56,666 nt of DNA from assembly GCA_031278395.1 (NCBI GenBank), contig JAITKM010000013.1, positions 1 through 56,666 of the forward strand, given 5' to 3'. Shown in pieces: positions 20,958 through 56,666 of the stretch (its first letter is position 1; every line of letters begins with the position of its first letter). The notes beneath the pieces were generated by a model. It had not been told where the DNA came from. It worked only from the letters and a program-made list of their open reading frames with translations, and ran no database searches. The translations under genes were made by a program, and so were the position numbers. The stretch comes from Deltaproteobacteria bacterium (lineage in GTDB: Bacteria > Bdellovibrionota_C > UBA2361 > SZUA-149 > JAITKM01).

Positions 20958-22517
20958 CTATAAAATTGGTTCATCATATAAACTATCTTCTTCATTATTA
21001 CCTCTGAGATTAGAACTGCTGAGAACACCGCTAATTATCGCTTCTTCAGTAATTTCGCCATAACCTTCAGCTGCATTTTCAAATGAAGTATACTCGCCAT
21101 GAAAAATCAGCGGAATGGTTCTAGTTTCTCCATTACGATGTTTAGCAATAATTAACTTAGCTTCATTTCTATCTTCTTCTTTTTTAGTTATGGGATATTT
21201 ACGTTGAACAAAAGCAATAATATCCGCATCTTGTTCAATAGCTCCAGATTCTCTTAAATCTGAGAGCAGTGGATCACTGATACCAGTGGTAGTGCGCTTT
21301 TCTACAGCACGACTAAGTTGTGACATAGCCACCACTGGTATTCTTAATTCTTTGGCTAAGGCTTTTAAAGACCTTGAAATTTCCGCGACTTCTTGTTCAC
21401 GATTACGGTCATTACGGCTTGGATTAGCCCGCATTAATTGGAGGTAATCAATAAAAATAATATCTAAATTTTTATCTCGATGTATTCTACGGGCTTTAGC
21501 TCTTAACTCGCCAACTGTAATTGACGGAGTTTCGTCGATAATAATATCAGCTGGACTAATCCTACCGCCAGCATCAGCTAATCTAGCAAAGTCGTCCGTG
21601 GCTAAATATCCGCTACGTATTTTTGAACTCGAAACTCTGGATTCAATACTTAAAATGCGATCGCCAATTTGATCGGCTGACATTTCCAGTGAAAAGAAAG
21701 CCACTCTCTTACCATACTCAACTGCTATTTTACGCACAATCGACAAGGCTAGGGCGGTTTTTCCCATGGCAGGTCTGCCAGCTATAATAATTAGATCTGA
21801 GGGTTGAAATCCAGAAGTTAGTTTATCTAGTTCGGTTAAGCCTGTTTCAACTCCAGTAATTGCGCCTTTATTGTTATATCTGGCTTCAATACGTGGAAAA
21901 GCGTTTTGCATAATATCGCTAATCTTGGTGACGCCATTGTGAGTTCTCACAGATGAAATTTGCAAAATCTTTTCTTCAATATTGTCGATTAAGTCTAAGG
22001 TTTCGCCTTTGTGAGTAAAGGCGCTATCGACAATTTCGCTAGCAGCGTGGATTAATTTTCTACGTAAAGCGGAATCTTTAACAATTTTTGTGTAATAAGC
22101 CGCATTAGCGGAGGTTGGCACAGAGTCAAGCAGGGTAATTAAATAATTAATACCGCCAACGTCTTGTAAGAGGTTGTCCGCTTTAGAAAAAAACTCATTA
22201 TCGTTTTTACCTTTCTCGGCTGTGGTATCTACTTTTTTTAAAAAATTTGCCAAAGTTAAAGTGTCTATTGGTTCACCTTTAGCATTCATTTTGAGCATGG
22301 CAGTAAAGATCGTTTTGTGTGCTTTTTTGTAAAAGTCATCGGCTTGGAGTTTGCCATCAATAATGTAGTTTAGGCTTTCATTATCACGCAAAACGGCTCC
22401 TAACACGGATTGTTCAGCTTCCAAAGAGTGGGGTGGAGTTCGTCCAGCGGATTGTTCTGGAAACTGAATATCTTGAGTTGTGTTTTCAATTAGAATTTCT
22501 GCGGTATTATTACTCAT
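20958..22517 (-). CDS. dnaB: Replicative DNA helicase DnaB
   Basis: 519 aa. N-terminal DnaB domain (SLEAEQSVLGAVL), Walker A GRPAMGKTALAL, and RecA-like C-terminal domain motifs. Confidence 0.9.
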   Translation of the reverse strand: MSNNTAEILIENTTQDIQFPEQSAGRTPPHSLEAEQSVLGAVLRDNESLNYIIDGKLQADDFYKKAHKTIFTAMLKMNAKGEPIDTLTLANFLKKVDTTAEKGKNDNEFFSKADNLLQDVGGINYLITLLDSVPTSANAAYYTKIVKDSALRRKLIHAASEIVDSAFTHKGETLDLIDNIEEKILQISSVRTHNGVTKISDIMQNAFPRIEARYNNKGAITGVETGLTELDKLTSGFQPSDLIIIAGRPAMGKTALALSIVRKIAVEYGKRVAFFSLEMSADQIGDRILSIESRVSSSKIRSGYLATDDFARLADAGGRISPADIIIDETPSITVGELRAKARRIHRDKNLDIIFIDYLQLMRANPSRNDRNREQEVAEISRSLKALAKELRIPVVAMSQLSRAVEKRTTTGISDPLLSDLRESGAIEQDADIIAFVQRKYPITKKEEDRNEAKLIIAKHRNGETRTIPLIFHGEYTSFENAAEGYGEITEEAIISGVLSSSNLRGNNEEDSLYDEPIL

Positions 22518-23442
22518 AGCATACTTCCTTAATTAGAATGTGAACATCGTTTTTAAAACTTGTATTCCAGAACTCTGGAAAGTTTTGAGAAAATGAAGAA
22601 CAAAAGGGGCGGTCTTTTTTCTTGAGTTTTGTCAAATCTTTGCTGGCGTCAGTTAACAGGATAATGGCTTTAGCGGTATAATATTCTTCTAAATTATAAT
22701 CAAAGAGTTTTAAAATTTTATTAACTTGGCAAAAGGCGGAGTTTTTTTTGCCATTGGAGTATAAACTAATAGCATATAAATTGTTGAGACTAACAGATTT
22801 TAGTTTTTTTTCTTTGAGATTGAAAATTAAAAATTCTTCAGCTTCTTCTGTTTGGTCTAGGGCTAAGAGTAACTTGGCGTATTGTTCGGCGTAATAAGTA
22901 TTTGGTTCAGTTTCAAAGGCGAGTTTTGAATATCGGATTGCGGTTGGGTTAAGATTTTGTAAATGGTAGATTAAAGATATATTTTGATAGATGAGCGCCA
23001 GGTCAGTTTTAGTGAGTTGGGTTTTAGTTTTGAGAAGTTCAGTATATAATTGTAGAGCTTGGTCTGTAGAGCCTTCTTGATAGAGTAGGTAAGCTAGATT
23101 AATTTGGGCGTTAATATTTGCGGGGTCTAAAGTTAATGCTTTTTCAAAATAAGTTTTAGCTTCTGACAGATTTTTTTGTTTGAGTAAGGCGTAGCCTAAG
23201 TCGTTATATATTCCAGAGTTGTTGTCATTTAAGGATAAGGCTTTTTTAAATTCTATTTCTGCGGCTTGGTATCTGTTTTGATCGGCTAGGTCTTTTCCTT
23301 TTTTAATGATACTTAATAATTCGATTTGTTGTGCGTTCTCTGGGTCAGTAGTAATTTTTTGTGGTGGAGTAATACAGGCGGTTGGGAGAAAGAAGAATAA
23401 TGAGATAACGAAAATATAGTTGATTGTTTTGTCTAAACACAT
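22510..23442 (-). CDS. TPR-repeat lipoprotein
   Basis: 310 aa. Signal peptide with lipobox (LPTAC). Multiple 34-residue TPR-like repeats (AEIEFKKALSLNDNNSGIYNDLGYALLKQKNLSEAKTYFEKAL...). Overlaps the dnaB start by 8 bp. Confidence 0.6.
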   Translation of the reverse strand: MCLDKTINYIFVISLFFFLPTACITPPQKITTDPENAQQIELLSIIKKGKDLADQNRYQAAEIEFKKALSLNDNNSGIYNDLGYALLKQKNLSEAKTYFEKALTLDPANINAQINLAYLLYQEGSTDQALQLYTELLKTKTQLTKTDLALIYQNISLIYHLQNLNPTAIRYSKLAFETEPNTYYAEQYAKLLLALDQTEEAEEFLIFNLKEKKLKSVSLNNLYAISLYSNGKKNSAFCQVNKILKLFDYNLEEYYTAKAIILLTDASKDLTKLKKKDRPFCSSFSQNFPEFWNTSFKNDVHILIKEVCYE

Positions 23443-23580
23443 CGATGCTGACCAATAGTATGTTTAACTAACGTCGTTAATATTAAAAAAGTATGGTAAA
23501 GTAGTCGCCGAACATACTTGTTTGGAATGGATAAAGCAACAAAATCACACTTCTGCTGCTGATCTATTCTGGTTGACTAT

Positions 23581-23760
23581 TTCTGGAGAAAAAAATAAAA
23601 AAATTCTGGAAATTCTGGTATGGGGTTACTTTATTTATTATCTTTTTTATAATTTGTTAAAACTACAATATATTGAATTTATTTGTTATTCTTTGAAAAA
23701 AAATTAAAAGTTTATATTTAAAAGTAACCCCATACCAGATGACCAGATGAATCCAGAGCT
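23581..23760. mobile_element. MITE-like palindromic repeat element, copy B
   Basis: Left arm TTCTGGA x3 then TGGTATGGGGTTACTTT (23617-23633). AT-rich core of about 85 bp. Right terminus AAAGTAACCCCATACCA (23721-23737), followed by ACCAGATG ACCAGATGA ATCCAGAG. Overlaps the spurious ORF 23522..23707. Confidence 0.8.
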
Positions 23761-29910: not shown

Positions 29911-29978
29911 ACTAACTTACCTCCCTCCCTGCATTTTTTACTCCGCAAGCAAAAATGCAGGGAGGGAGGTAAGTTAGT
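29911..29978. promoter_or_regulatory. Perfect 28-bp inverted repeat with 12-nt loop (ACTAACTTACCTCCCTCCCTGCATTTTT-TACTCCGCAAGC-AAAAATGCAGGGAGGGAGGTAAGTTAGT)
   Basis: Read directly. It has a GC-rich core in an AT-rich divergent intergenic region, 58 bp from the minus-strand methyltransferase start and 140 bp from the plus-strand methyltransferase-GT8 start. Confidence 0.6.
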
Positions 29979-49519: not shown

Positions 49520-49745
49520 TTTTTTGTTTTTCTTTGGTGCAGGGTTCTTTTTTAGCTTTTTGTATATAAAAAGCTATTAAAAGTTGTATAGTTTTTAGAT
49601 AGTAAAATTAAATAGTTATCTTTTAAAAAGGTAACACTATAACCAAGAAAGCAAGCAAAAATTTGTTTCATACGTGGATTATCATAAAAAGATTATAAAG
49701 TAACCCTGCACCAGAAATAACCAGAAATACCAGAAATAACTGCAG
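49520..49745. mobile_element. MITE-like palindromic repeat element, copy D (longer core)
   Basis: TTTCTTTGGTGCAGGGTTCTTTT (49531-49552), a core of about 145 bp, then AAAGTAACCCTGCACCA (49698-49713) followed by ACCAGAAATA x3. Confidence 0.7.
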
Positions 49746-49876
49746 TGGTATCTCGAAAATCAGGAATGAGTTAATTCTGTAAAATCCGGCGATTATCAGA
49801 AGTATTATAAGAAAACAATATGCCGGACGCTAACCATTGCGGTTTTGTTAACACCTAGGCGGTCGGAAGGAGAATT

Positions 49877-50224
49877 ATGGCAAATTATATAGAAAACCGA
49901 CCTTGGGGCAGTTTTGAAGTTTTGCTGGATAATGTAAATTACAAAGTAAAAATTCTGACTGTCCGTCCGCAAAAACGTTTGAGCCTGCAGTCACACCGGC
50001 GCCGCAGTGAAAACTGGGTGGTTGTGGTCGGACAGGCTTATGTGGAGATAGACGATGAGTTTTGGATTTTGGACAAAGGTCAACATGTGTTTATACCGAT
50101 CGGCGCGAAGCACCGCCTGGAGAATAAAGGCGAGGTTGACCTCGTAGTTGTGGAGACGCAGACCGGCGATTATTTTGGCGAGGATGATATTGTGCGCTAT
50201 GCTGATGATTTTCAGAGAACTTAA
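49877..50224 (+). CDS. Cupin-domain protein (mannose-6-phosphate isomerase type-II C-terminal-like)
   Basis: 115 aa. ENRPWGSFEVL...QSHRRRSENWVVVVGQAYVEID...GAKHRLENKG cupin motifs. By eye the gene is visibly GC-richer than its neighbours. Confidence 0.65.
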   Translation: MANYIENRPWGSFEVLLDNVNYKVKILTVRPQKRLSLQSHRRRSENWVVVVGQAYVEIDDEFWILDKGQHVFIPIGAKHRLENKGEVDLVVVETQTGDYFGEDDIVRYADDFQRT

Positions 50225-50522
50225 TCGATGAGCCAGCTGGGGATTTTTTCTGGAACGGCTTATATTTTTTTGGGTCTACGCCGTGCCGCTGTTTTCTTTC
50301 TTTGGTGCAGCCCCTGCCCCTCTGCCCCAGCAGAAAAACAAAATCAAGTAATATGCGAAAAGAGACGATAGGCAATGGCGCGAAAAAGAAATTTTTTAAG
50401 ATATTTGTTCCCATCGAATATAAGTATAATGACGGATTTTAATCAACTAAAAGGTAAGCAGGTAGTAACAGTAGTGGATTATATCGGCAATTAAAACCGC
50501 CGTTTGAATTAAGCTGCACTTC

Positions 50523-51509
50523 TTAAGCTTCGCCGCGAATTATCTTATAGGTTTCTTCAATTTGTTTCTTTTCTTCTTTTTGCCGCGATAATTTTTTATA
50601 AATATTAGCCTGTTCAATGTTGCCTTGCTCTTTATATAAAACAGATAATTCATAGCATGCACCAGCAGTCCATTTTTGTTCATGACATAAAATCTTAAAG
50701 ATAGCCTCTGCTTCTTTTATTTTATTAAGTTTCATTTTAGTACGTCCAAGATTACCATAGGCATTAATATCTCCAAGTTCATGTCCTTTAGCAAACAACA
50801 GTTCTGCCAAGTCATAATTTTTACGTATAAACTCAATTGTGCCAAGGTTATTGTGTGCTCCAGCATGATTTAAACTCACTGCTCGTCCATATAAAACATG
50901 AGCATTTATATTATCATAAAGTAGCTTCTCATAAACTAACCCGGCATGAAAACAACCTGCACCGTTGTTTAAATCACATGCCTTTTCATACCAGTTAATT
51001 GCTTGGTAATAATCTTTCTTATTATAACGATAATCATTCGCAACCAGCATACATGAGTTACTAGTGATATTGCCTCTCTGGCATGTCTTTTTAGCAATTT
51101 CAATGTTAACTGGAGCTAATGAAAATTGTGCATTGAGCCTTGGTAGTAAAAGAAATATTAATATTAGCAGCAGTAAAATTATAGCCTGCCGAGGATGCAG
51201 CTTATCTGGCTGAAATTTACTTTTCCATTGTTTAACAGCATAGTTAGTTTCTATATCTATCTTGTCACTTAGTTGTTTGTTTTTTTCTGAAAATATAGTC
51301 TTTTGAGAATTTGTTTTTAAAACTAAATCGTTAGTTAAAAAATTATTATTTCGTGAGTATGAATCATTGGTATTAGAAGTCTCTTGAGGTGGTTTAATAT
51401 TTTTTAATAACAGATACATTACCCAGATTAATATTCCCAGTAGTATTACTATTCTTAGGGCAGTCTGAGGATCTTCTATTAAAAATTGGATTGAATTAGC
51501 TATTGGCAT
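50523..51509 (-). CDS. Sel1-like repeat (SLR/TPR-like) membrane-anchored protein
   Basis: 328 aa. TM helix near residue 100. The C-terminal half has Sel1-like repeats with spaced Cys/Gly/Ala (AINWYEKACDLNNGAGCFHAGLVY...NHAGAHNNLG...). Confidence 0.6.
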   Translation of the reverse strand: MPIANSIQFLIEDPQTALRIVILLGILIWVMYLLLKNIKPPQETSNTNDSYSRNNNFLTNDLVLKTNSQKTIFSEKNKQLSDKIDIETNYAVKQWKSKFQPDKLHPRQAIILLLLILIFLLLPRLNAQFSLAPVNIEIAKKTCQRGNITSNSCMLVANDYRYNKKDYYQAINWYEKACDLNNGAGCFHAGLVYEKLLYDNINAHVLYGRAVSLNHAGAHNNLGTIEFIRKNYDLAELLFAKGHELGDINAYGNLGRTKMKLNKIKEAEAIFKILCHEQKWTAGACYELSVLYKEQGNIEQANIYKKLSRQKEEKKQIEETYKIIRGEA

Positions 51510-51587
51510 AGATTTTTATTTTACTTTTGCAGGAACAAAAAAGTATAATCGAAACACTAACATTAAAACTTTAATATTATTAATATT

Positions 51588-51800
51588 GAATGTTGGGTAA
51601 CAAAATTAATACAATATCTAATCTAAATTAAAGTAACCCCATACCAACACTACCAACACTAACTTTTTACTTTTTTAAAAATTACAAAATAATTTAGAAT
51701 CTTATATTTATTTAAATCATGAAAAAACTAATAAACAAAGCACCATAGAAAACAACCCTACACCATAGCACCATAGAAACACATGTTCACCATAGAAAAT
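51588..51800. mobile_element. MITE-like repeat element, copy E (rearranged: terminus-core-degenerate terminus)
   Basis: AAAGTAACCCCATACCA (51630-51646) plus ACCAACACT x2. The core at 51663-51740 is about 80% identical to the copy A core. The right end is degenerate (AAAGCACCATAGAAAACAACCCTACACCATAGCACCATAGAAA), with CACCATAGAAA repeated 3 times. Confidence 0.7.
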
Positions 51801-51983
51801 AATCAAACTTGCTCTATTTTTTTTTTTTTGATAAAGCTACTCGTTTTTTTATCCTATTTATGGAAGTAGTTTTAGATTTAGTTGTGTTGTTTGTTGCGTG
51901 TTGTAATGGTGATTTAACAACATTTTATTTATAATTTGTTGCCGAATATAAATTTAGTTCGGTTTTTTATTGGAGTTTTTTTT

Positions 51984-52703
51984 ATGAAAAAAAGTAATTT
52001 AATTTTATTAACATTTGCAGTATCGCTGTTTGCTGTCATACCCCATACTTTCGCAGAGGGAAATGAAGTAACAGTTTCTCCTTACGTTTCAACAAAACTA
52101 TCATTTGGCTGGACAAAAGGTCATAACGCTGTTGGTGATTTATCGTCAGATGATGGTTATGAAACTTCTTTTGATACTAATACTGATACTGGAGTTGGTA
52201 CAAAAATAGCCGTTGGTGTTTCAACAGCTGTCCCTGCTATTCATGGCGCAATCAGAACAGAATTAGAATTTGGTTTAAATTCAGATTACAAAGATAAAAA
52301 TGTAGATACTAGCTATGTTGATGATGGATATCCGTCATTTACTGTTGAGAGTAAAACGTTTTTATTCAATGTTTATTATGATTTTACCAATTGTTCAAAA
52401 TTTACTCCATACATCGGAGCTGGTTTGGGTTTAGCTCATACAACTTTGGATATGAATTATTTTGGTGATGACGGTGGTAATGATTGGTATGCTGGCGGAA
52501 GTAAAACGAATAATAAATTTGCTTGGCAGGTAGGAACTGGTGTTGCTTATAACATAACTGACAAAACTGCATTAGATCTTGGATATAGATTTACTGATCT
52601 TGGTGAAATTAGCGCAGATGCAGACCGAAACAGTAATCCAGGTGCTGTTAAAGCAGATTTAAAATCACATGAAATCTTACTTGGGCTTAGATATACTTTC
52701 TAA
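51984..52703 (+). CDS. Outer-membrane beta-barrel protein (OmpA-like/OMP_b-brl porin family)
   Basis: Most likely start is MKKSNLILLTFAVSLFAVIPHTFA (signal peptide). There are alternating amphipathic beta-strands and a C-terminal ...LGLRYTF aromatic terminus. The ORF-track start at 51936 is probably too early. Confidence 0.75.
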   Translation: MKKSNLILLTFAVSLFAVIPHTFAEGNEVTVSPYVSTKLSFGWTKGHNAVGDLSSDDGYETSFDTNTDTGVGTKIAVGVSTAVPAIHGAIRTELEFGLNSDYKDKNVDTSYVDDGYPSFTVESKTFLFNVYYDFTNCSKFTPYIGAGLGLAHTTLDMNYFGDDGGNDWYAGGSKTNNKFAWQVGTGVAYNITDKTALDLGYRFTDLGEISADADRNSNPGAVKADLKSHEILLGLRYTF

Positions 52704-52798
52704 TTCTTAAGATTGTGATGAAATCACAAAGTTTTTGCCGAAATATTTTTAGCGGCAGAACTTTTAAAAAAATTCTTATAGAATTCTAATTTGTTTTA

Positions 52799-52830
52799 AG
52801 TCGGTGATAATTGTTACCGACTTTTTTTTC
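52799..52830 (+). terminator. Candidate intrinsic terminator downstream of the OMP gene
   Basis: GTCGGTGATAATTGTTACCGAC imperfect hairpin, followed by a T8 run. Confidence 0.55.
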
Positions 52831-52839
52831 TCTCCTCCT

Positions 52840-53121
52840 CCTGACCTCCTCCTTCCTCCTGGTACAGGGTTACTTTCATTTTATATTTCTTGATGACACT
52901 TTTAAAAAATACCAAATAAATCTAATATATTAATCAAGATACCTAACTAAAAATATGGGTAATACCAGAAAGACCAGAAAAGTAACCTTATACCAGAAAG
53001 AAAATTAGTGGTCAGTGGTTAGCACAAGAGTGGTTAGTGGTTAGTTTACATGAGAACCAGAAAGAAAATATTAAACAGAAATCTAGTGTTAGACCAGAAC
53101 CCTATACCAGAAAGAAAAAAA
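52840..53121. mobile_element. MITE-like element copy F plus cluster of solo termini and microsatellites
   Basis: CCTCCT-rich run, then TGGTACAGGGTTACTTTC (52860-52877), core, then AAAAGTAACCTTATACCA (52978-52995) flanked by ACCAGAAAG repeats. GTGGTTA is repeated 3-4 times at 53007-53043. A further terminus AGAACCCTATACCAGAAAG lies at 53096-53114. Confidence 0.7.
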
Positions 53122-53532
53122 AATTCTTGACTTGGCGAAACCTTTACTCTCGCCCCCAGACCCACCAAAACCTCGCTATGCCCTACATAACGATGTAATA
53201 ACTTAACCGGTAAATTCCAGCGCTGTTGCAAAAAAAAATCCTTTGTAGCTCTGGCAAACACTTATACTTTTGTGAATCAATCACGGGTATAAGTAAAATA
53301 AATCTCTTAGTCCTTAGTTTTTAAATATTTTTTAGGTTGTTTATTATCGTTTTTAGAGCATAAAACGGTGGTCGTATTAGGAGAAAAATTGTGATTTGGC
53401 AATAAAAACTTTTAGTTTGCGCTTGAAACAAAGTATGAAACGGACCCAAAATTGTTATGATAATGGTTTCTTATGGTTTAAAATTATTTTTATTTTTTGA
53501 AACAGATAATAAAACTACATCAAACTTAATTC

Positions 53533-53549
53533 AAAAGAACCCTGTACCA
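53533..53549. repeat. Solo element terminus (AAAAGAACCCTGTACCA + A-run) at the base-composition boundary
   Basis: Read directly. The GC-rich segment begins about 10-40 bp downstream. Confidence 0.65.
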
Positions 53550-53590
53550 AAAAAACTAACCTTTGCGAAACGTTACATTTGATCTTTGAT

Positions 53591-54904
53591 TTATCTGAAT
53601 GTAATTCCGTTTTTTTCTGAGCGTTTTAGCAACGTAATTGCAACAATCAGGGCAAGCATTTCCGCAATACCTGCGGTAAACCACACAACGGCAACGCCGA
53701 ATAAAACGGGAAATACGGAAATAATCACCGAGTTGAACAGCAGTCCCCGGCATACGTTGATGATAACCGATTCTTTCGTGCGTTTAGTTGAATATAAATA
53801 CGCAGAAATAATCGCAGTCAGGGAAATCGGAATAAAACTCCATGCGAATTTCGGCATAGCGTCCACGATGACATTGTAGATAGTCTCGTCCGCTCCAAAC
53901 AGCCCGCAAATTACCCTGCCTAAAAACAGCAACAGAACAAAGATCGCTACGCTTGCAGAAAAGTTGATCACAACGCCGGCATGAAAATAGTATTTCAAAT
54001 CATTTTCTTTTTTCGCCCCATAGGATTGTCCGAATAAGGGTTGCAAGCCCTCGGAAATGCCCCAAAATGCCGCAAATAAACAGGACGACACATAGTTGAT
54101 GATTGAATAAGCGTTGACCGCGCTGGCGCCAAGCGAGTTAAGCAACGTGTAGTTCAGGCAGAGCGTTGTAACCGGCATGGCGAATTGCGCGGTCATTTCG
54201 GGCAGCCCGCGAAGGAGAATTTTACGCCACATGGCGAAATCCGGCGTAAAGAGATGAAACCGCAAAGCCCCTTTTTTGCGTATAAAGTGAGACAGCATGA
54301 TAACAGCCCCGATTGTTTGGGATATTCCCGTTGCGATTGCCGTGCCCGCCACGCCTTGTTGAAGGGGGAAAATAAACAGCCAGTCCAGAAAAACATTGGC
54401 GGCGGTACTGACAATAACCGACGCGGCGACAAGTCGCGGCGAACCGTCATTGCGGCAAAATGCTTGCAATAAAAAGCCCGGTTCGGAAATAATCAGGAAC
54501 GCCGAATACCAGAATAAATAATCGCGGACGTAGGTAAAATAAATATCGTTTGCTCCGAGCAGGCGGGCAAGCGGTCCGGTAAAGAACATTCCGGCAATAC
54601 ATAACAGTACGGCAACCATGAAAATACCGGAAAGAGCGTGCATAAAAACCTGATTGGCGCCATTGGTATCGCCGCGACCAAGACGAATAGCGGCAATTGT
54701 TACACCGCCTATGGTTACGAGCAAATTAAGCGATACGACCAGCATGACGAAAGGAAGCGCAATATTGATCGCGCCAAGCGCATCCACCCCGACGCCCCTG
54801 CCGACAAAAACGCCGTCAATGACTGTAAATAAGAAAAAACAACAACTGCTGAGTACCGAAGGTACAAGATAATATGCTATATTTTGCGCCCGTGTCCGTT
54901 TCAT
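53591..54904 (-). CDS. MATE-family efflux transporter
   Basis: 437 aa. 12 predicted TM helices with MatE-family repeats (e.g. PEMTAQFAMPVTTLCLNYTLLNSLGASAV). GC-rich codon usage unlike the rest of the window. Confidence 0.8.
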   Translation of the reverse strand: MKRTRAQNIAYYLVPSVLSSCCFFLFTVIDGVFVGRGVGVDALGAINIALPFVMLVVSLNLLVTIGGVTIAAIRLGRGDTNGANQVFMHALSGIFMVAVLLCIAGMFFTGPLARLLGANDIYFTYVRDYLFWYSAFLIISEPGFLLQAFCRNDGSPRLVAASVIVSTAANVFLDWLFIFPLQQGVAGTAIATGISQTIGAVIMLSHFIRKKGALRFHLFTPDFAMWRKILLRGLPEMTAQFAMPVTTLCLNYTLLNSLGASAVNAYSIINYVSSCLFAAFWGISEGLQPLFGQSYGAKKENDLKYYFHAGVVINFSASVAIFVLLLFLGRVICGLFGADETIYNVIVDAMPKFAWSFIPISLTAIISAYLYSTKRTKESVIINVCRGLLFNSVIISVFPVLFGVAVVWFTAGIAEMLALIVAITLLKRSEKNGITFR

Positions 54905-55410
54905 AAATTAACGCCCCTACGAAAAAATTAATTTCTTTATGCAACGACCGAAGTCCTCATACTGCAAAAAAAAAGCCGAATAAGACGCCAATTGGATGTA
55001 ATTGGTTTTCTTATCCGGCGTGTTAGATACGTCTGCACGCCCTCCGAAAAACCAACTTATCCGACGTCTTATCCGGCTTTGTAACTACGCTGTACAAATC
55101 CTCCGACGAACAAAGTAAATAGTAATAAGATTACCCAAAACTATTTGAAACGTCAATCTGCCGTTTAACATACTTCCAAAGTCCAAGGTTGCAGTCGCGG
55201 TTCGGGTATTCCAATATGCACATCAGTAATTCAGCTTTTTCTTCCGTGGAAAATGTCTTTGACCAGCAAAGCGAGCATGGGGTCTATCAAAATCTTCATT
55301 TGCCCACCCCTTGGTCAAACAATGTCGGTTGCGCGGCCTGTTCCTGCCATTCCACCTTGAACGCCACGCAGTCCTTGACTTCTTGAACAAAGACCAGTTC
55401 TTCGCTTTAC

Positions 55411-55719
55411 ATGACGACGCGGGCGTTCTGCGTGAATACGAACCGCGATACTTTTTTGCGCCCCTGTAAGAACTCCAAGCCGGTCCGCGTTAAAATCCAT
55501 ATAAAAACCGAGTTCAAAAACAAATTGGAAGAGATTTATGCTCCGATACAAGAAATTATAAAAGAAGACGGATTGTTGAAAAGTGGCGCATTAAATATAA
55601 CAATCGATATGCACATGAAAGAGATACTGTTTATAGACCAGCCGGAAGAGAATCTTGATAACGAATCAATCTACAAATTGCTCGTTCCCGCCATCAAGGA
55701 AGCGCGGAATCAAATATGA
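55411..55719 (+). CDS. Hypothetical protein (uncertain ORF)
   Basis: 102 aa. No recognisable motif. Composition is mixed. The true start is unclear. Confidence 0.2.
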   Translation: MTTRAFCVNTNRDTFLRPCKNSKPVRVKIHIKTEFKNKLEEIYAPIQEIIKEDGLLKSGALNITIDMHMKEILFIDQPEENLDNESIYKLLVPAIKEARNQI

Positions 55720-55862
55720 TTTATAGAGAAGCTAAACCGCTTCCCACGAGCAAAGCATAATTTTCTGCACTTCGGCGGTATGTTTAAGGGCACGTTTGCA
55801 GCCAACGTTGTTAGCCGCAACTTCGCGTAATACTTATTATTTCGGCAATAGAAAATATTCTC

Positions 55863-56465
55863 TTAAAGGTTTATATTTTTTACCCGAATAAAATTTGTTA
55901 GTGTTTCACGATTGACACGAAGTTTTCTGGCAATAGCGGTCTTACTATCACCACGCGCGAGCATTCGGCGCACGCTATTTTCTTTGCCTGTCAGTTTCAG
56001 ATATGAACTCTTGCTGCCGAACGGCCGGCCAAGAATTTGACCAGCCGCACGACGGGCGGCCAGCGCTTCCTTGGTGCGCTGGGATATGAGATTTCTTTCC
56101 AATTCGGCTGTAAGACCAAAGGCAAAGGCGAGGATTTTTCCCTGTATACCTGCGTCAAGGCGATAATTGTCTCGGATAGTCCAAATGTTCGCACCAATAT
56201 TCATACAATGGTTCAGAATGCCCATAATCTGTAATAAATCACGTCCAAGGCGCGATAATTCGCTTGAAATAACTATATCGTCTTTTTTGATTTTCCTTAT
56301 CAATCTGCCAAGTTTGCGCTTTTTTAGCTCTTGCCGCGAACTGATGGTTTCCTCAACCCACTCATCAATAACGATGTGCTGCCCAGCAACGAATTGCTCT
56401 ATCTCAAACCTTTGGTTTTCTGTTGTTTGCGTAGCTGTGCTGACCCGTATGTAGCCATAAATCAT
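55863..56465 (-). CDS. Small serine recombinase (resolvase/invertase family)
   Basis: 200 aa. Catalytic N-terminus MIYGYIRVSTATQ (Ser nucleophile), SELSRLGRD motif, and C-terminal HTH (SKTAIARKLRVNRETLTNFI). Confidence 0.85.
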   Translation of the reverse strand: MIYGYIRVSTATQTTENQRFEIEQFVAGQHIVIDEWVEETISSRQELKKRKLGRLIRKIKKDDIVISSELSRLGRDLLQIMGILNHCMNIGANIWTIRDNYRLDAGIQGKILAFAFGLTAELERNLISQRTKEALAARRAAGQILGRPFGSKSSYLKLTGKENSVRRMLARGDSKTAIARKLRVNRETLTNFIRVKNINL

Positions 56466-56530
56466 TTTATACTCCTTTATTTTTGTTGAACATGTGTAGT
56501 CTAAATCATTTTATACTTCTTTGTTTTTCT
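56458..56530. promoter_or_regulatory. 29-bp direct repeat pair (TAAATCATTTTATACTCCTTTATTTTTGT / TAAATCATTTTATACTTCTTTGTTTTTCT) at the recombinase 5' end: candidate res-like/autoregulatory site
   Basis: Read directly. Copy 1 contains the recombinase RBS and start codon. Copy 2, 44 bp further upstream, carries ATG-ATT-TAG (a start followed by an immediate stop). Confidence 0.45.
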
Positions 56531-56666
56531 TAAACAACAACTTGTATAAAATAAACGACCGTATAAATCCGCCGGCGGCGCGATGATTTTTAATCCCACG
56601 CTGGGTCGAGAAATACCGGCGGGGTGGGAAACCTTGAAATTAGAAAAGCGGTTCAATTTTGATAGA

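Follow-up and report, generated by a model that had tools for sequence, protein, structure and literature searches.

Joints between host-type and foreign DNA at the termini of small inverted-repeat elements in a contig of a deep-branching gut bacterium

Contig JAITKM010000013.1 of a Deltaproteobacteria bacterium (assembly GCA_031278395.1) raises the question of how DNA of a different composition came to lie next to a cluster of short repeats. The window analysed here is the whole contig of 56,666 bp. Near its right end a repeat-dense tract (52704-53590) separates a gene for an outer membrane protein (OMP) from the gene of a MATE efflux transporter, where the base composition changes; since the window ends with the contig, the foreign segment runs out at the contig end. 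In the original prediction the tract was regarded as a possible recombinational landing pad for foreign DNA or, alternatively, as a repeat-induced assembly join. We found that the tract carries copies of a small inverted-repeat element, and that every joint visible in the window between DNA of host type and foreign DNA, three in all, is located at a terminus of this element; two are resolved to the base and the third to within 40 bp. With confidence slightly above even we favour the reading that the tract is a cluster resembling miniature inverted-repeat transposable elements (MITEs), the ends of which act as hot spots of breakage and joining and have taken up foreign DNA.

The repeat is defined by its terminus. 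The motif CTGGTAYRGGGTTACTTT occurs 13 times in the window at up to three mismatches, always in intergenic DNA, with a few weaker copies besides, and its 11-mer core was found nine times compared to an expected 0.39. Only about 21 nt of the repeat are conserved. Four inverted pairs with 18-nt inverted repeats measure 113, 124, 138 and approximately 186 bp and enclose AT-rich, variable interiors of 75-150 bp; the remaining termini, about half of the total, are solo. In folding predictions the units paired only left terminus with right terminus, and no conserved dyad was detected within the 18-21-nt motif.

A second property of the termini is instability at the tip. Tandem duplications of 8-12 nt spanning the tip were found at 7 of the 13 termini, compared with 0.9% of 902 control YTGG sites. 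Each duplicated unit combines flanking sequence peculiar to its locus with the terminal YTGG and occurs in two or three tandem copies (for example TTTCGCTGG twice, AAATTCTGG twice and TTATTTCTGG three times), and all duplications lie on the outer side of the motif (at 417-529, 23615-23738, 49697-49738, 51630-51660 and others). Because the units differ between loci, the duplications must have arisen in place.

The tract itself comprises 887 bp with 32% GC between the OMP stop codon (52703) and the MATE stop codon (53591), the two genes being convergent across it. From left to right it contains the OMP terminator, a CT-rich flank, a complete element designated copy F, GTGGTYAG repeats, two partial right ends, two spacers, a solo terminus and 40 bp leading to the MATE stop codon (Table 1). 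The 18-nt termini of copy F (52859-52876, plus strand, and 52979-52996, minus strand) are the only parts that match other copies in self-BLAST, its AT-rich interior being unlike theirs. The sequences ACCAGAAAG/ACCAGAAAAG lie just inside the right end (52964-52982), and all four exact copies of ACCAGAAAG in the window fall into 52964-53114 (0.42 expected). To the right, three of the five window copies of GTGGTTAG lie in 53015-53044, ACCAGAAAGAAAAT (53056-53069) is identical to 52992-53005, and the 21-nt ACCCTATACCAGAAAGAAAAA (53098-53118) is 95% identical to 52984-53004. The last solo terminus (53533-53550) agrees at 19 of 20 nt with the left end of the 49529-49714 element, and on its outer side the foreign DNA starts.

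These results agree with most of what had been predicted for the tract. Copy F, the CCTCCT-rich run (CT-rich at 52832-52860, 63% GC) and the three or four GTGGTTA repeats (three GTGGTTAG copies in 30 bp by motif count and Tandem Repeats Finder, TRF) were recovered, as was every other repeat listed, and the switch toward 50% GC within about 40 bp of the last terminus was confirmed, the core of that terminus ending at 53550 and the MATE stop codon occupying 53591-53593. Three further solo termini had been proposed: the one at 53533-53550 stood, the one at 52966-53000 proved to be the right inverted repeat of copy F, and the one at 53096-53114 is a degenerate copy. The OMP terminator (52798-52831), which opens the tract, had been missed.

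The absence of a convincing open reading frame (ORF) was likewise upheld. The longest ORFs, of 71 aa (53046-53261, minus strand) and 53 aa, were without a Pfam match even at E<=10, stop codons are abundant in all six frames, a scan of the window for tRNA genes found none, and Rfam at the gathering threshold yielded no match in the tract, matches at E<=5 being only noise. Against 1.8 billion representative proteins the 71-aa ORF matched itself and two long repeat proteins only; one of these two was examined and is a WD40-repeat protein, matched through the motif WNLxxxLLHxxxGH. Pfam WD40 gave no match, the database matches were weak, and this ORF was treated as non-coding. Its former description as low-complexity did not hold; the portion 53119-53270 is a spacer with 41% GC. 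Comparison of 53100-53560 with plasmid and phage collections gave no match.

Judged by composition and homologues, the DNA downstream of the tract is a foreign mosaic of at least 3.1 kb derived from other gut bacteria. GC content is 0.265 in 53400-53599, 0.425 in 53600-53799 and about 0.50 from 54000, and amounts to 0.45 for 53591-56465 compared to 0.35 for 1-49738. GC content at third codon positions (GC3) is 0.52 in the MATE gene and 0.43 in a DNA invertase gene located further downstream, as opposed to 0.17-0.34 in eleven host genes. The closest relatives of the MATE protein, 64-72% at the amino acid level over the full length, are proteins of JGI metagenomes (up to 72%) and of one metagenome-assembled genome (MAG) labelled Treponema (64%); a further relative, in a Peptococcaceae MAG, reaches 58%. 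From 55153 on, the DNA is about 77% identical to a prophage-adjacent region of an Alphaproteobacteria MAG (contig L079). The junction between the MATE unit and this prophage patch (approximately 55121-55153) is without a terminus.

A parallel case was found 3.5 kb upstream of the MATE junction, where a GC-rich patch (49739-50291) closely resembles Margulisiibacteriota DNA. Within it an intact cupin gene (49877-50224) lies between two decayed gene remnants, the 3' part of an rfbB-like gene and the 5' part of ftsK; in the Margulisiibacteriota MAG contig L078 the same 553 bp span the end of the rfbB-like gene, the whole cupin gene and the start of ftsK. The cupin gene differs from the donor-lineage copy at 13 nucleotides, which affect 10 codons synonymously and 3 non-synonymously. 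A newly arisen nonsense codon and a frameshift interrupt the rfbB fragment, and the ftsK fragment has frameshifts and a deletion. Since the cupin gene was kept while the flanking fragments decayed, the patch is a genuine resident insert. The direction of transfer, as read from this comparison, is from the Margulisiibacteriota lineage to the lineage studied here.

Both borders of the cupin patch coincide with element termini. On the left, the first of three CCAGAAATA(A) units starts with the CCAG tip of the terminus 49697-49714, at 49711, the third ends at 49738, and the junction is the base after this third unit, with AGAAA-type microhomology to the donor. On the right lies a truncated sequence resembling a left terminus; it includes the 13-mer TTCTTTGGTGCAG, which is present in the window only there (50298-50310) and in the left terminus of the adjacent element (49530-49542).

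Table 1. Features of the repeat tract, the cupin patch and the adjoining foreign DNA (positions in the 56,666-bp window)
Feature	Position	Strand	Evidence
Element copy (~49529-49714) followed by three tandem CCAGAAATA(A) units	49529-49738		Motif scan, tandem-unit analysis
Margulisiibacteriota-like patch, 553 bp	49739-50291	+	93.4% nt identity to MAG contig L078 5864-6426
Truncated left-terminus-like sequence (TTTCTTTCTTTGGTGCAG) at right junction of patch	50293-50310	+	13-mer count
OMP beta-barrel gene, upstream border of tract; host DNA, GC3 0.17	51984-52703	+	Pfam OMP_b-brl 3.8e-15; exact protein on Logan contig L077
OMP intrinsic terminator: 11-bp stem, 4-nt loop, T8	52798-52831	+	Terminator scan
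CT-rich run (CTCCTCCTCCTGACCTCCTCCTTCCTCCT, 63% GC), directly outside left terminus of copy F	52832-52858		Composition, TRF
Complete inverted-repeat element, copy F, 138 bp	52859-52996		Motif scan; termini pair in single-stranded DNA fold
GTGGTYAG short repeats, 4 copies, immediately outside right terminus of copy F	53006-53045	+	TRF, motif count
Partial, degenerate right-end copies	53056-53118	-	Self-BLAST
GC-richer spacer (41% GC), no coding or RNA function demonstrable	53119-53270		No Pfam hit, weak WD40-like matches, no phage/plasmid match
AT-rich spacer (26% GC), stop codons in all six frames	53271-53532		Frame and GC scan
Last solo terminus (AAAAGAACCCTGTACCAA)	53533-53550	-	Motif scan, self-BLAST
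Interval holding host/foreign junction, not placeable more finely	53551-53590		Similarity to MATE homologue contigs ends at stop codon 53591
MATE efflux transporter gene, intact, GC 0.475, GC3 0.52	53591-54904	-	Pfam MatE 1.6e-39
Structured MATE leader: long hairpin ending in T-run	54950-55112	-	Homologue alignment, predicted pairs
Pseudogenised remnants of two prophage-region genes	55153-55399	-	77% nt identity to L079 10356-10600; translations
Mpi-family serine DNA invertase, intact	55863-56465	-	NCBIfam NF009949, 281.8 bits vs cut-off 272
hsdS (type I restriction specificity) 5' end, cut by contig end	56583-56666	+	Translation MIFNPTLGREIPAGWETLKLEKRFNFDR vs L079 half-hsdS MIFNKTLGREIPERWDVKKL

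How these joints might have formed can be pictured as follows. The intergenic space past the OMP terminator would have been colonised by lineage-specific, non-autonomous inverted-repeat elements, which now form a decayed cluster. The element ends would be sites of repeated DNA breakage and repair; repair would leave the locus-specific 8-12-nt tandem duplications over the tip of the terminus, and occasionally exogenous DNA would be joined by microhomology-mediated illegitimate recombination. At the tract the captured mosaic would comprise the MATE gene with its own leader, decayed prophage genes and the Mpi-family invertase with an invertible hsdS locus, and capture from co-resident gut bacteria would have taken place at least twice. 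The notion of a landing pad thus stands as far as the DNA can be read directly: there is foreign DNA downstream, and the joints, including those of the cupin patch, are at termini. Its mechanistic part, with terminus breakage as the cause of the joining and an enzyme responsible for it, is what we infer from this arrangement.

Several observations weigh against this interpretation. The interiors of the elements are unrelated between copies, except for 439-515 and 51664-51740 (84%), which is not what a textbook MITE looks like; no target-site duplications flank the four complete copies, whose flanks share no direct repeat, and no transposase or parent insertion sequence (IS) was found in the window. 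The three termini inside the tract are mostly without clean tip duplications. The position of the MATE junction is resolved no better than to 40 bp, and the other junction of the foreign segment lies past the contig end. In the independent Logan assembly (see below) contigs break at 52808 and 53018, and continuity between these two points comes from the original assembly alone. The contig of the closest relative (L081) stops short of the tract locus. Finally, only two foreign segments stand behind the association, which could be due to chance in permissive intergenic DNA.

The main mundane rival follows from the last point. It assumes that the elements and the foreign DNA gathered independently where insertions are tolerated, for instance in intergenic space with few genes past terminators, the latter having entered by an unrelated route such as a prophage or invertase module or illegitimate recombination, so that their co-localisation has no causal meaning. 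The exclusively intergenic location of the termini and the small number of foreign segments fit this explanation, as do the prophage remnants and the recombinase in the mosaic, which are possible carriers, and the internal MATE/prophage-patch junction without a terminus. Against it, all three host/foreign junctions are at a terminus, with the cupin patch beginning right after the last tandem unit and ending at a 13-mer known from one other terminus only. In addition, the cupin patch is not a mobile element but a random fragment with truncated genes, and instability of the ends themselves is evident from the tip duplications. On balance we consider mere co-localisation unlikely, though it deserves to be taken seriously.

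The motif could also be bound by a protein rather than form a transposon end, for instance as a barrier to replication forks or as the att-like target of a site-specific element that was not seen. Insertion and excision, or the collapse of forks, next to the bound site would then have left the duplications and the foreign DNA behind. We keep this reading because two hallmarks of MITEs, target-site duplications and conserved interiors, were missing; that about half of the copies are solo, and that the duplications lie on one (outer) side and include the terminal YTGG, is also compatible with it. The four inverted pairs (113-186 bp) and the one pair of interiors with 84% identity fit mobile elements better, and neither a binding protein nor a recombinase specific for the motif was found, the sole recombinase being encoded in the foreign DNA next to hsdS. 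A protein-bound site therefore appears to us rather improbable. Three known kinds of site, a sigma-54 promoter, a hix/gix-like invertase site and an integron core site, were also compared with the motif by eye and rejected, since invariant positions or dyad symmetry are missing.

A bolder version of the capture hypothesis would make the terminus the working site of a dedicated, undescribed DNA-capture or recombination system that repeatedly cuts at ...TACCAG and ligates short fragments from neighbouring bacteria (Margulisiibacteriota, spirochaete-like donors) into the chromosome. We regard such a system as a long shot. If it existed, random foreign fragments would be tried as new genes, the cupin and MATE genes being kept while their flanks decayed.

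An assembly or amplification chimera, in which either the 3.6-kb block 53018-56666 or the cupin patch came from another organism, would make the junctions artefacts. The question was approached through an independent assembly, using Logan contigs of run SRR14710901 reached by exact-protein look-ups. These cover 50442-51632, 51739-52808 (L077) and 53018-56551 (L001); a look-up with the OMP protein starting from TTG found no record. L001 is 100% identical to 53018-56551; ahead of the foreign genes it carries an AT-rich portion of about 570 bp, in which two termini of the host family lie. Because one Logan contig spans the GC boundary, the boundary is not an assembly join, and the genome from which the 53018-56551 block was derived, to judge from these termini, also bears the lineage-specific motif. 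Exact repeats common to both sides of the tract do not exceed 16 nt. The cupin patch lies inside the contig, shows only about 6 nt of microhomology at its two junctions and is 6.6% diverged from the Margulisiibacteriota MAG, with inactivated flanks and a preserved ORF; such features would be unexpected in a chimera with a living donor genome. What speaks for a chimera is that the foreign block lies at a contig end, that same-run Logan contigs break in the tract, and that the exact cupin protein of the window has no Logan record. The predicted repeat-induced join was thus largely refuted at the GC boundary, 52808-53018 resting on the original assembly, and we consider a chimera very unlikely.

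It is hardly conceivable that the Mpi-family invertase flips the 113-186-bp units as invertible promoters (invertons) and that the tract controls phase variation. The invertase gene is 2.3 kb away and some inverted-repeat pairs lie between divergent genes (e.g. 23615-23738), but the enzyme is encoded in foreign DNA next to hsdS, as in an 87%-identical relative, which suggests that it shuffles hsdS, half of the motif copies stand alone rather than always being paired around a promoter, copy F lies past a terminator between convergent gene ends, and the motif lacks the dyad symmetry of hix/gix-type sites.

Returning to the capture reading, the composition of the foreign segment deserves closer description. 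Close homologues of the MATE gene were found in three unrelated gene neighbourhoods without a recombinase, which ruled out that MATE and invertase form a conserved mobile module. Similarity of about 73-75% at the nucleotide level to the homologue contigs L012-L014 begins at the MATE stop codon, covers the gene and continues for 50-210 bp into the DNA ahead of the start codon. As the leader is conserved with the MATE homologues, the gene must have arrived with its own control region. This leader of approximately 150 nt, common to three homologues in unrelated contexts, contains CCGGATAAG twice; 49 pairs were predicted, 7 of them compensatory, and comparison with Rfam gave no match. It may be an undescribed attenuator or riboswitch-like element. 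Of the two prophage remnants further upstream of the MATE gene, one is the C-terminal part of a 141-aa gene, interrupted by an in-frame stop, and the other a truncated N-terminal part of a 167-aa gene.

The distal part of the segment is dominated by the invertase. Its relatives are 83-88% identical at the amino acid level, one of them located in an Alphaproteobacteria MAG beside hsdS genes. The gene is divergent from the hsdS portion, which comprises the first 28 codons (84 nt), and 56548-56630 matches the hsdS genes of L079 in both orientations. This arrangement suggests that 55863-56666 belongs to an invertible type I restriction specificity locus. Sequence heterogeneity at such a locus is a natural, probable reason for the contig end, and because the invertase lies beside hsdS as in its relative, it is unlikely to act on the host repeat family. 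The foreign block had no match in the plasmid collection, and no tRNA target, integrase or flanking direct repeats were found in the window, the far end of the foreign segment lying past the contig end.

Two further repeats were noticed beside the invertase gene. A 27-nt inverted repeat (55159-55185 and 55766-55792, 78% complementary) encloses 580 bp with a 102-aa ORF; it could be an inversion site or due to chance. A 35-nt direct repeat (56458-56492 and 56502-56536, 89%, 44-bp spacing) duplicates the 5' end of the invertase gene and the ribosome-binding region.

Other irregularities were seen near elements elsewhere in the window. The stretch 51630-51769 is a mosaic, in which a right terminus with CCAACACTA twice is fused to an interior 84% identical to 439-515 and which ends in a variant terminus with CTATGGTG repeats; this structure suggests that element copies have recombined with each other. 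At 29911-29978, where a solo terminus lies alongside and a glycosyltransferase gene follows downstream, a perfect inverted repeat of 28 nt with a 12-nt loop (ACTAACTTACCTCCCTCCCTGCATTTTT...) was found. The contig start, before the first element copy, holds three or four tandem repeats, each about 27-30 nt long (GCTGTGATGATTTTTGTTTAGTC..., 90-192). The 231 bp between the cupin patch and a Sel1/TPR gene (50292-50522, 38% GC), which open with a C-rich stretch (GCCCCTGCCCCTCTGCCCCAG), may have been captured as well.

To what extent the family occurs elsewhere was examined by pattern searches. In metagenome contigs the CTGGTAYRGGGTTACTTT-type pattern yielded 62 stretches from unrelated biomes, 60 of them with a single hit, which by our own estimate is about the chance level, and in viral contigs the terminus pattern matched once; the family was thus not found in these collections. 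In L081 (11.9 kb; DnaB 90% identical), the closest relative, there was no motif copy at up to four mismatches. Upstream of dnaB this contig shares only a 46-nt block (23507-23552, 87%) with the window, beside the element 23615-23738. The TPR gene upstream of dnaB (22510-23442) is absent from L081 (385-600 compared).

As a kind, small inverted-repeat elements that border horizontally acquired DNA are known, and the present case can be compared with several described systems. With bacterial MITEs, such as the Correia elements of Neisseria and the palindromic elements of Rickettsia, the elements share small size (113-186 bp), non-coding and intergenic nature, terminal inverted repeats of about 18 nt, and occurrence in many copies, solo and paired, as a one-lineage family. 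They differ from these in that no target-site duplication and, in the window, no parent IS was seen, in that their interiors are mostly unrelated, and in that their ends carry locus-specific 8-12-nt tandem duplications including the terminal YTGG. Repetitive extragenic palindromes (REP), bacterial interspersed mosaic elements (BIME) and REPINs, which are mobilised by REP-associated tyrosine transposases (RAYT), are likewise based on a short conserved extragenic motif, single or in inverted pairs with variable spacers. In contrast to them, the motif described here is no palindrome or hairpin by itself, and a RAYT gene was not found in the window. Typical REPIN spacers are also shorter than the 75-150 bp observed here.

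Genomic islets at repeat or IS borders, and capture of filler DNA by microhomology-mediated end joining, resemble the foreign segments in the sharp shift of GC and GC3, the foreign genes, the decayed mobile-element remnants and the junctions with a few bases of microhomology. Unlike in islets, the junctions are at the ends of small repeat elements and not at an island att site, with no tRNA target, integrase or direct repeats. Phase-variable type I restriction-modification loci (hsdS shufflons) offer a parallel for the distal part: the invertase is divergent from the hsdS 5' end, and the relative L079 has hsdS and half-hsdS genes with inverted homologous segments, whereas here only 84 nt of hsdS precede the contig end and no hsdM or hsdR is visible there.

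The host portion of the contig (GC about 35%) carries housekeeping genes including valS, dnaB, purC, nusA-infB and a gene for a CzcA-type pump; the proteins of the contig are deposited as MDR2337560-606 (locus tags LBE20_). DnaB has one 90%-identical relative, from another JGI sample (3300042596), all others being at most 60% identical and belonging to MAGs labelled Deltaproteobacteria, Bdellovibrionota or Oligoflexia; as these relatives are sparse and distant, the host represents a poorly sampled, deep-branching lineage. A search of genome contigs with IF-2 for syntenic loci found distant relatives only (at most 53% amino acid identity). Proteins at least 90% identical to the product of one contig gene are from 'Candidatus Termititenax', which we take to be a termite-gut organism, and from Margulisiibacteriota MAGs. 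Because such matches include Termititenax, the habitat of the host is probably the termite gut. Horizontal transfer among termite-gut symbionts is well documented (PMC11257099), so the transfer itself is not surprising.

What is unusual is the combination of base-resolved joints at a repeat terminus with tandem duplications spanning the tip. In uncultured bacteria the joints of horizontal transfer are mostly unseen, the transfer being deduced from gene trees; here two of them are resolved to the base, with microhomology. In practical terms, the GC jump at the end of this contig calls for read-level checks before anyone trims it as contamination. If the association between termini and joints holds genome-wide, the element ends would provide a concrete entry point of foreign DNA in a deep-branching termite-gut lineage.

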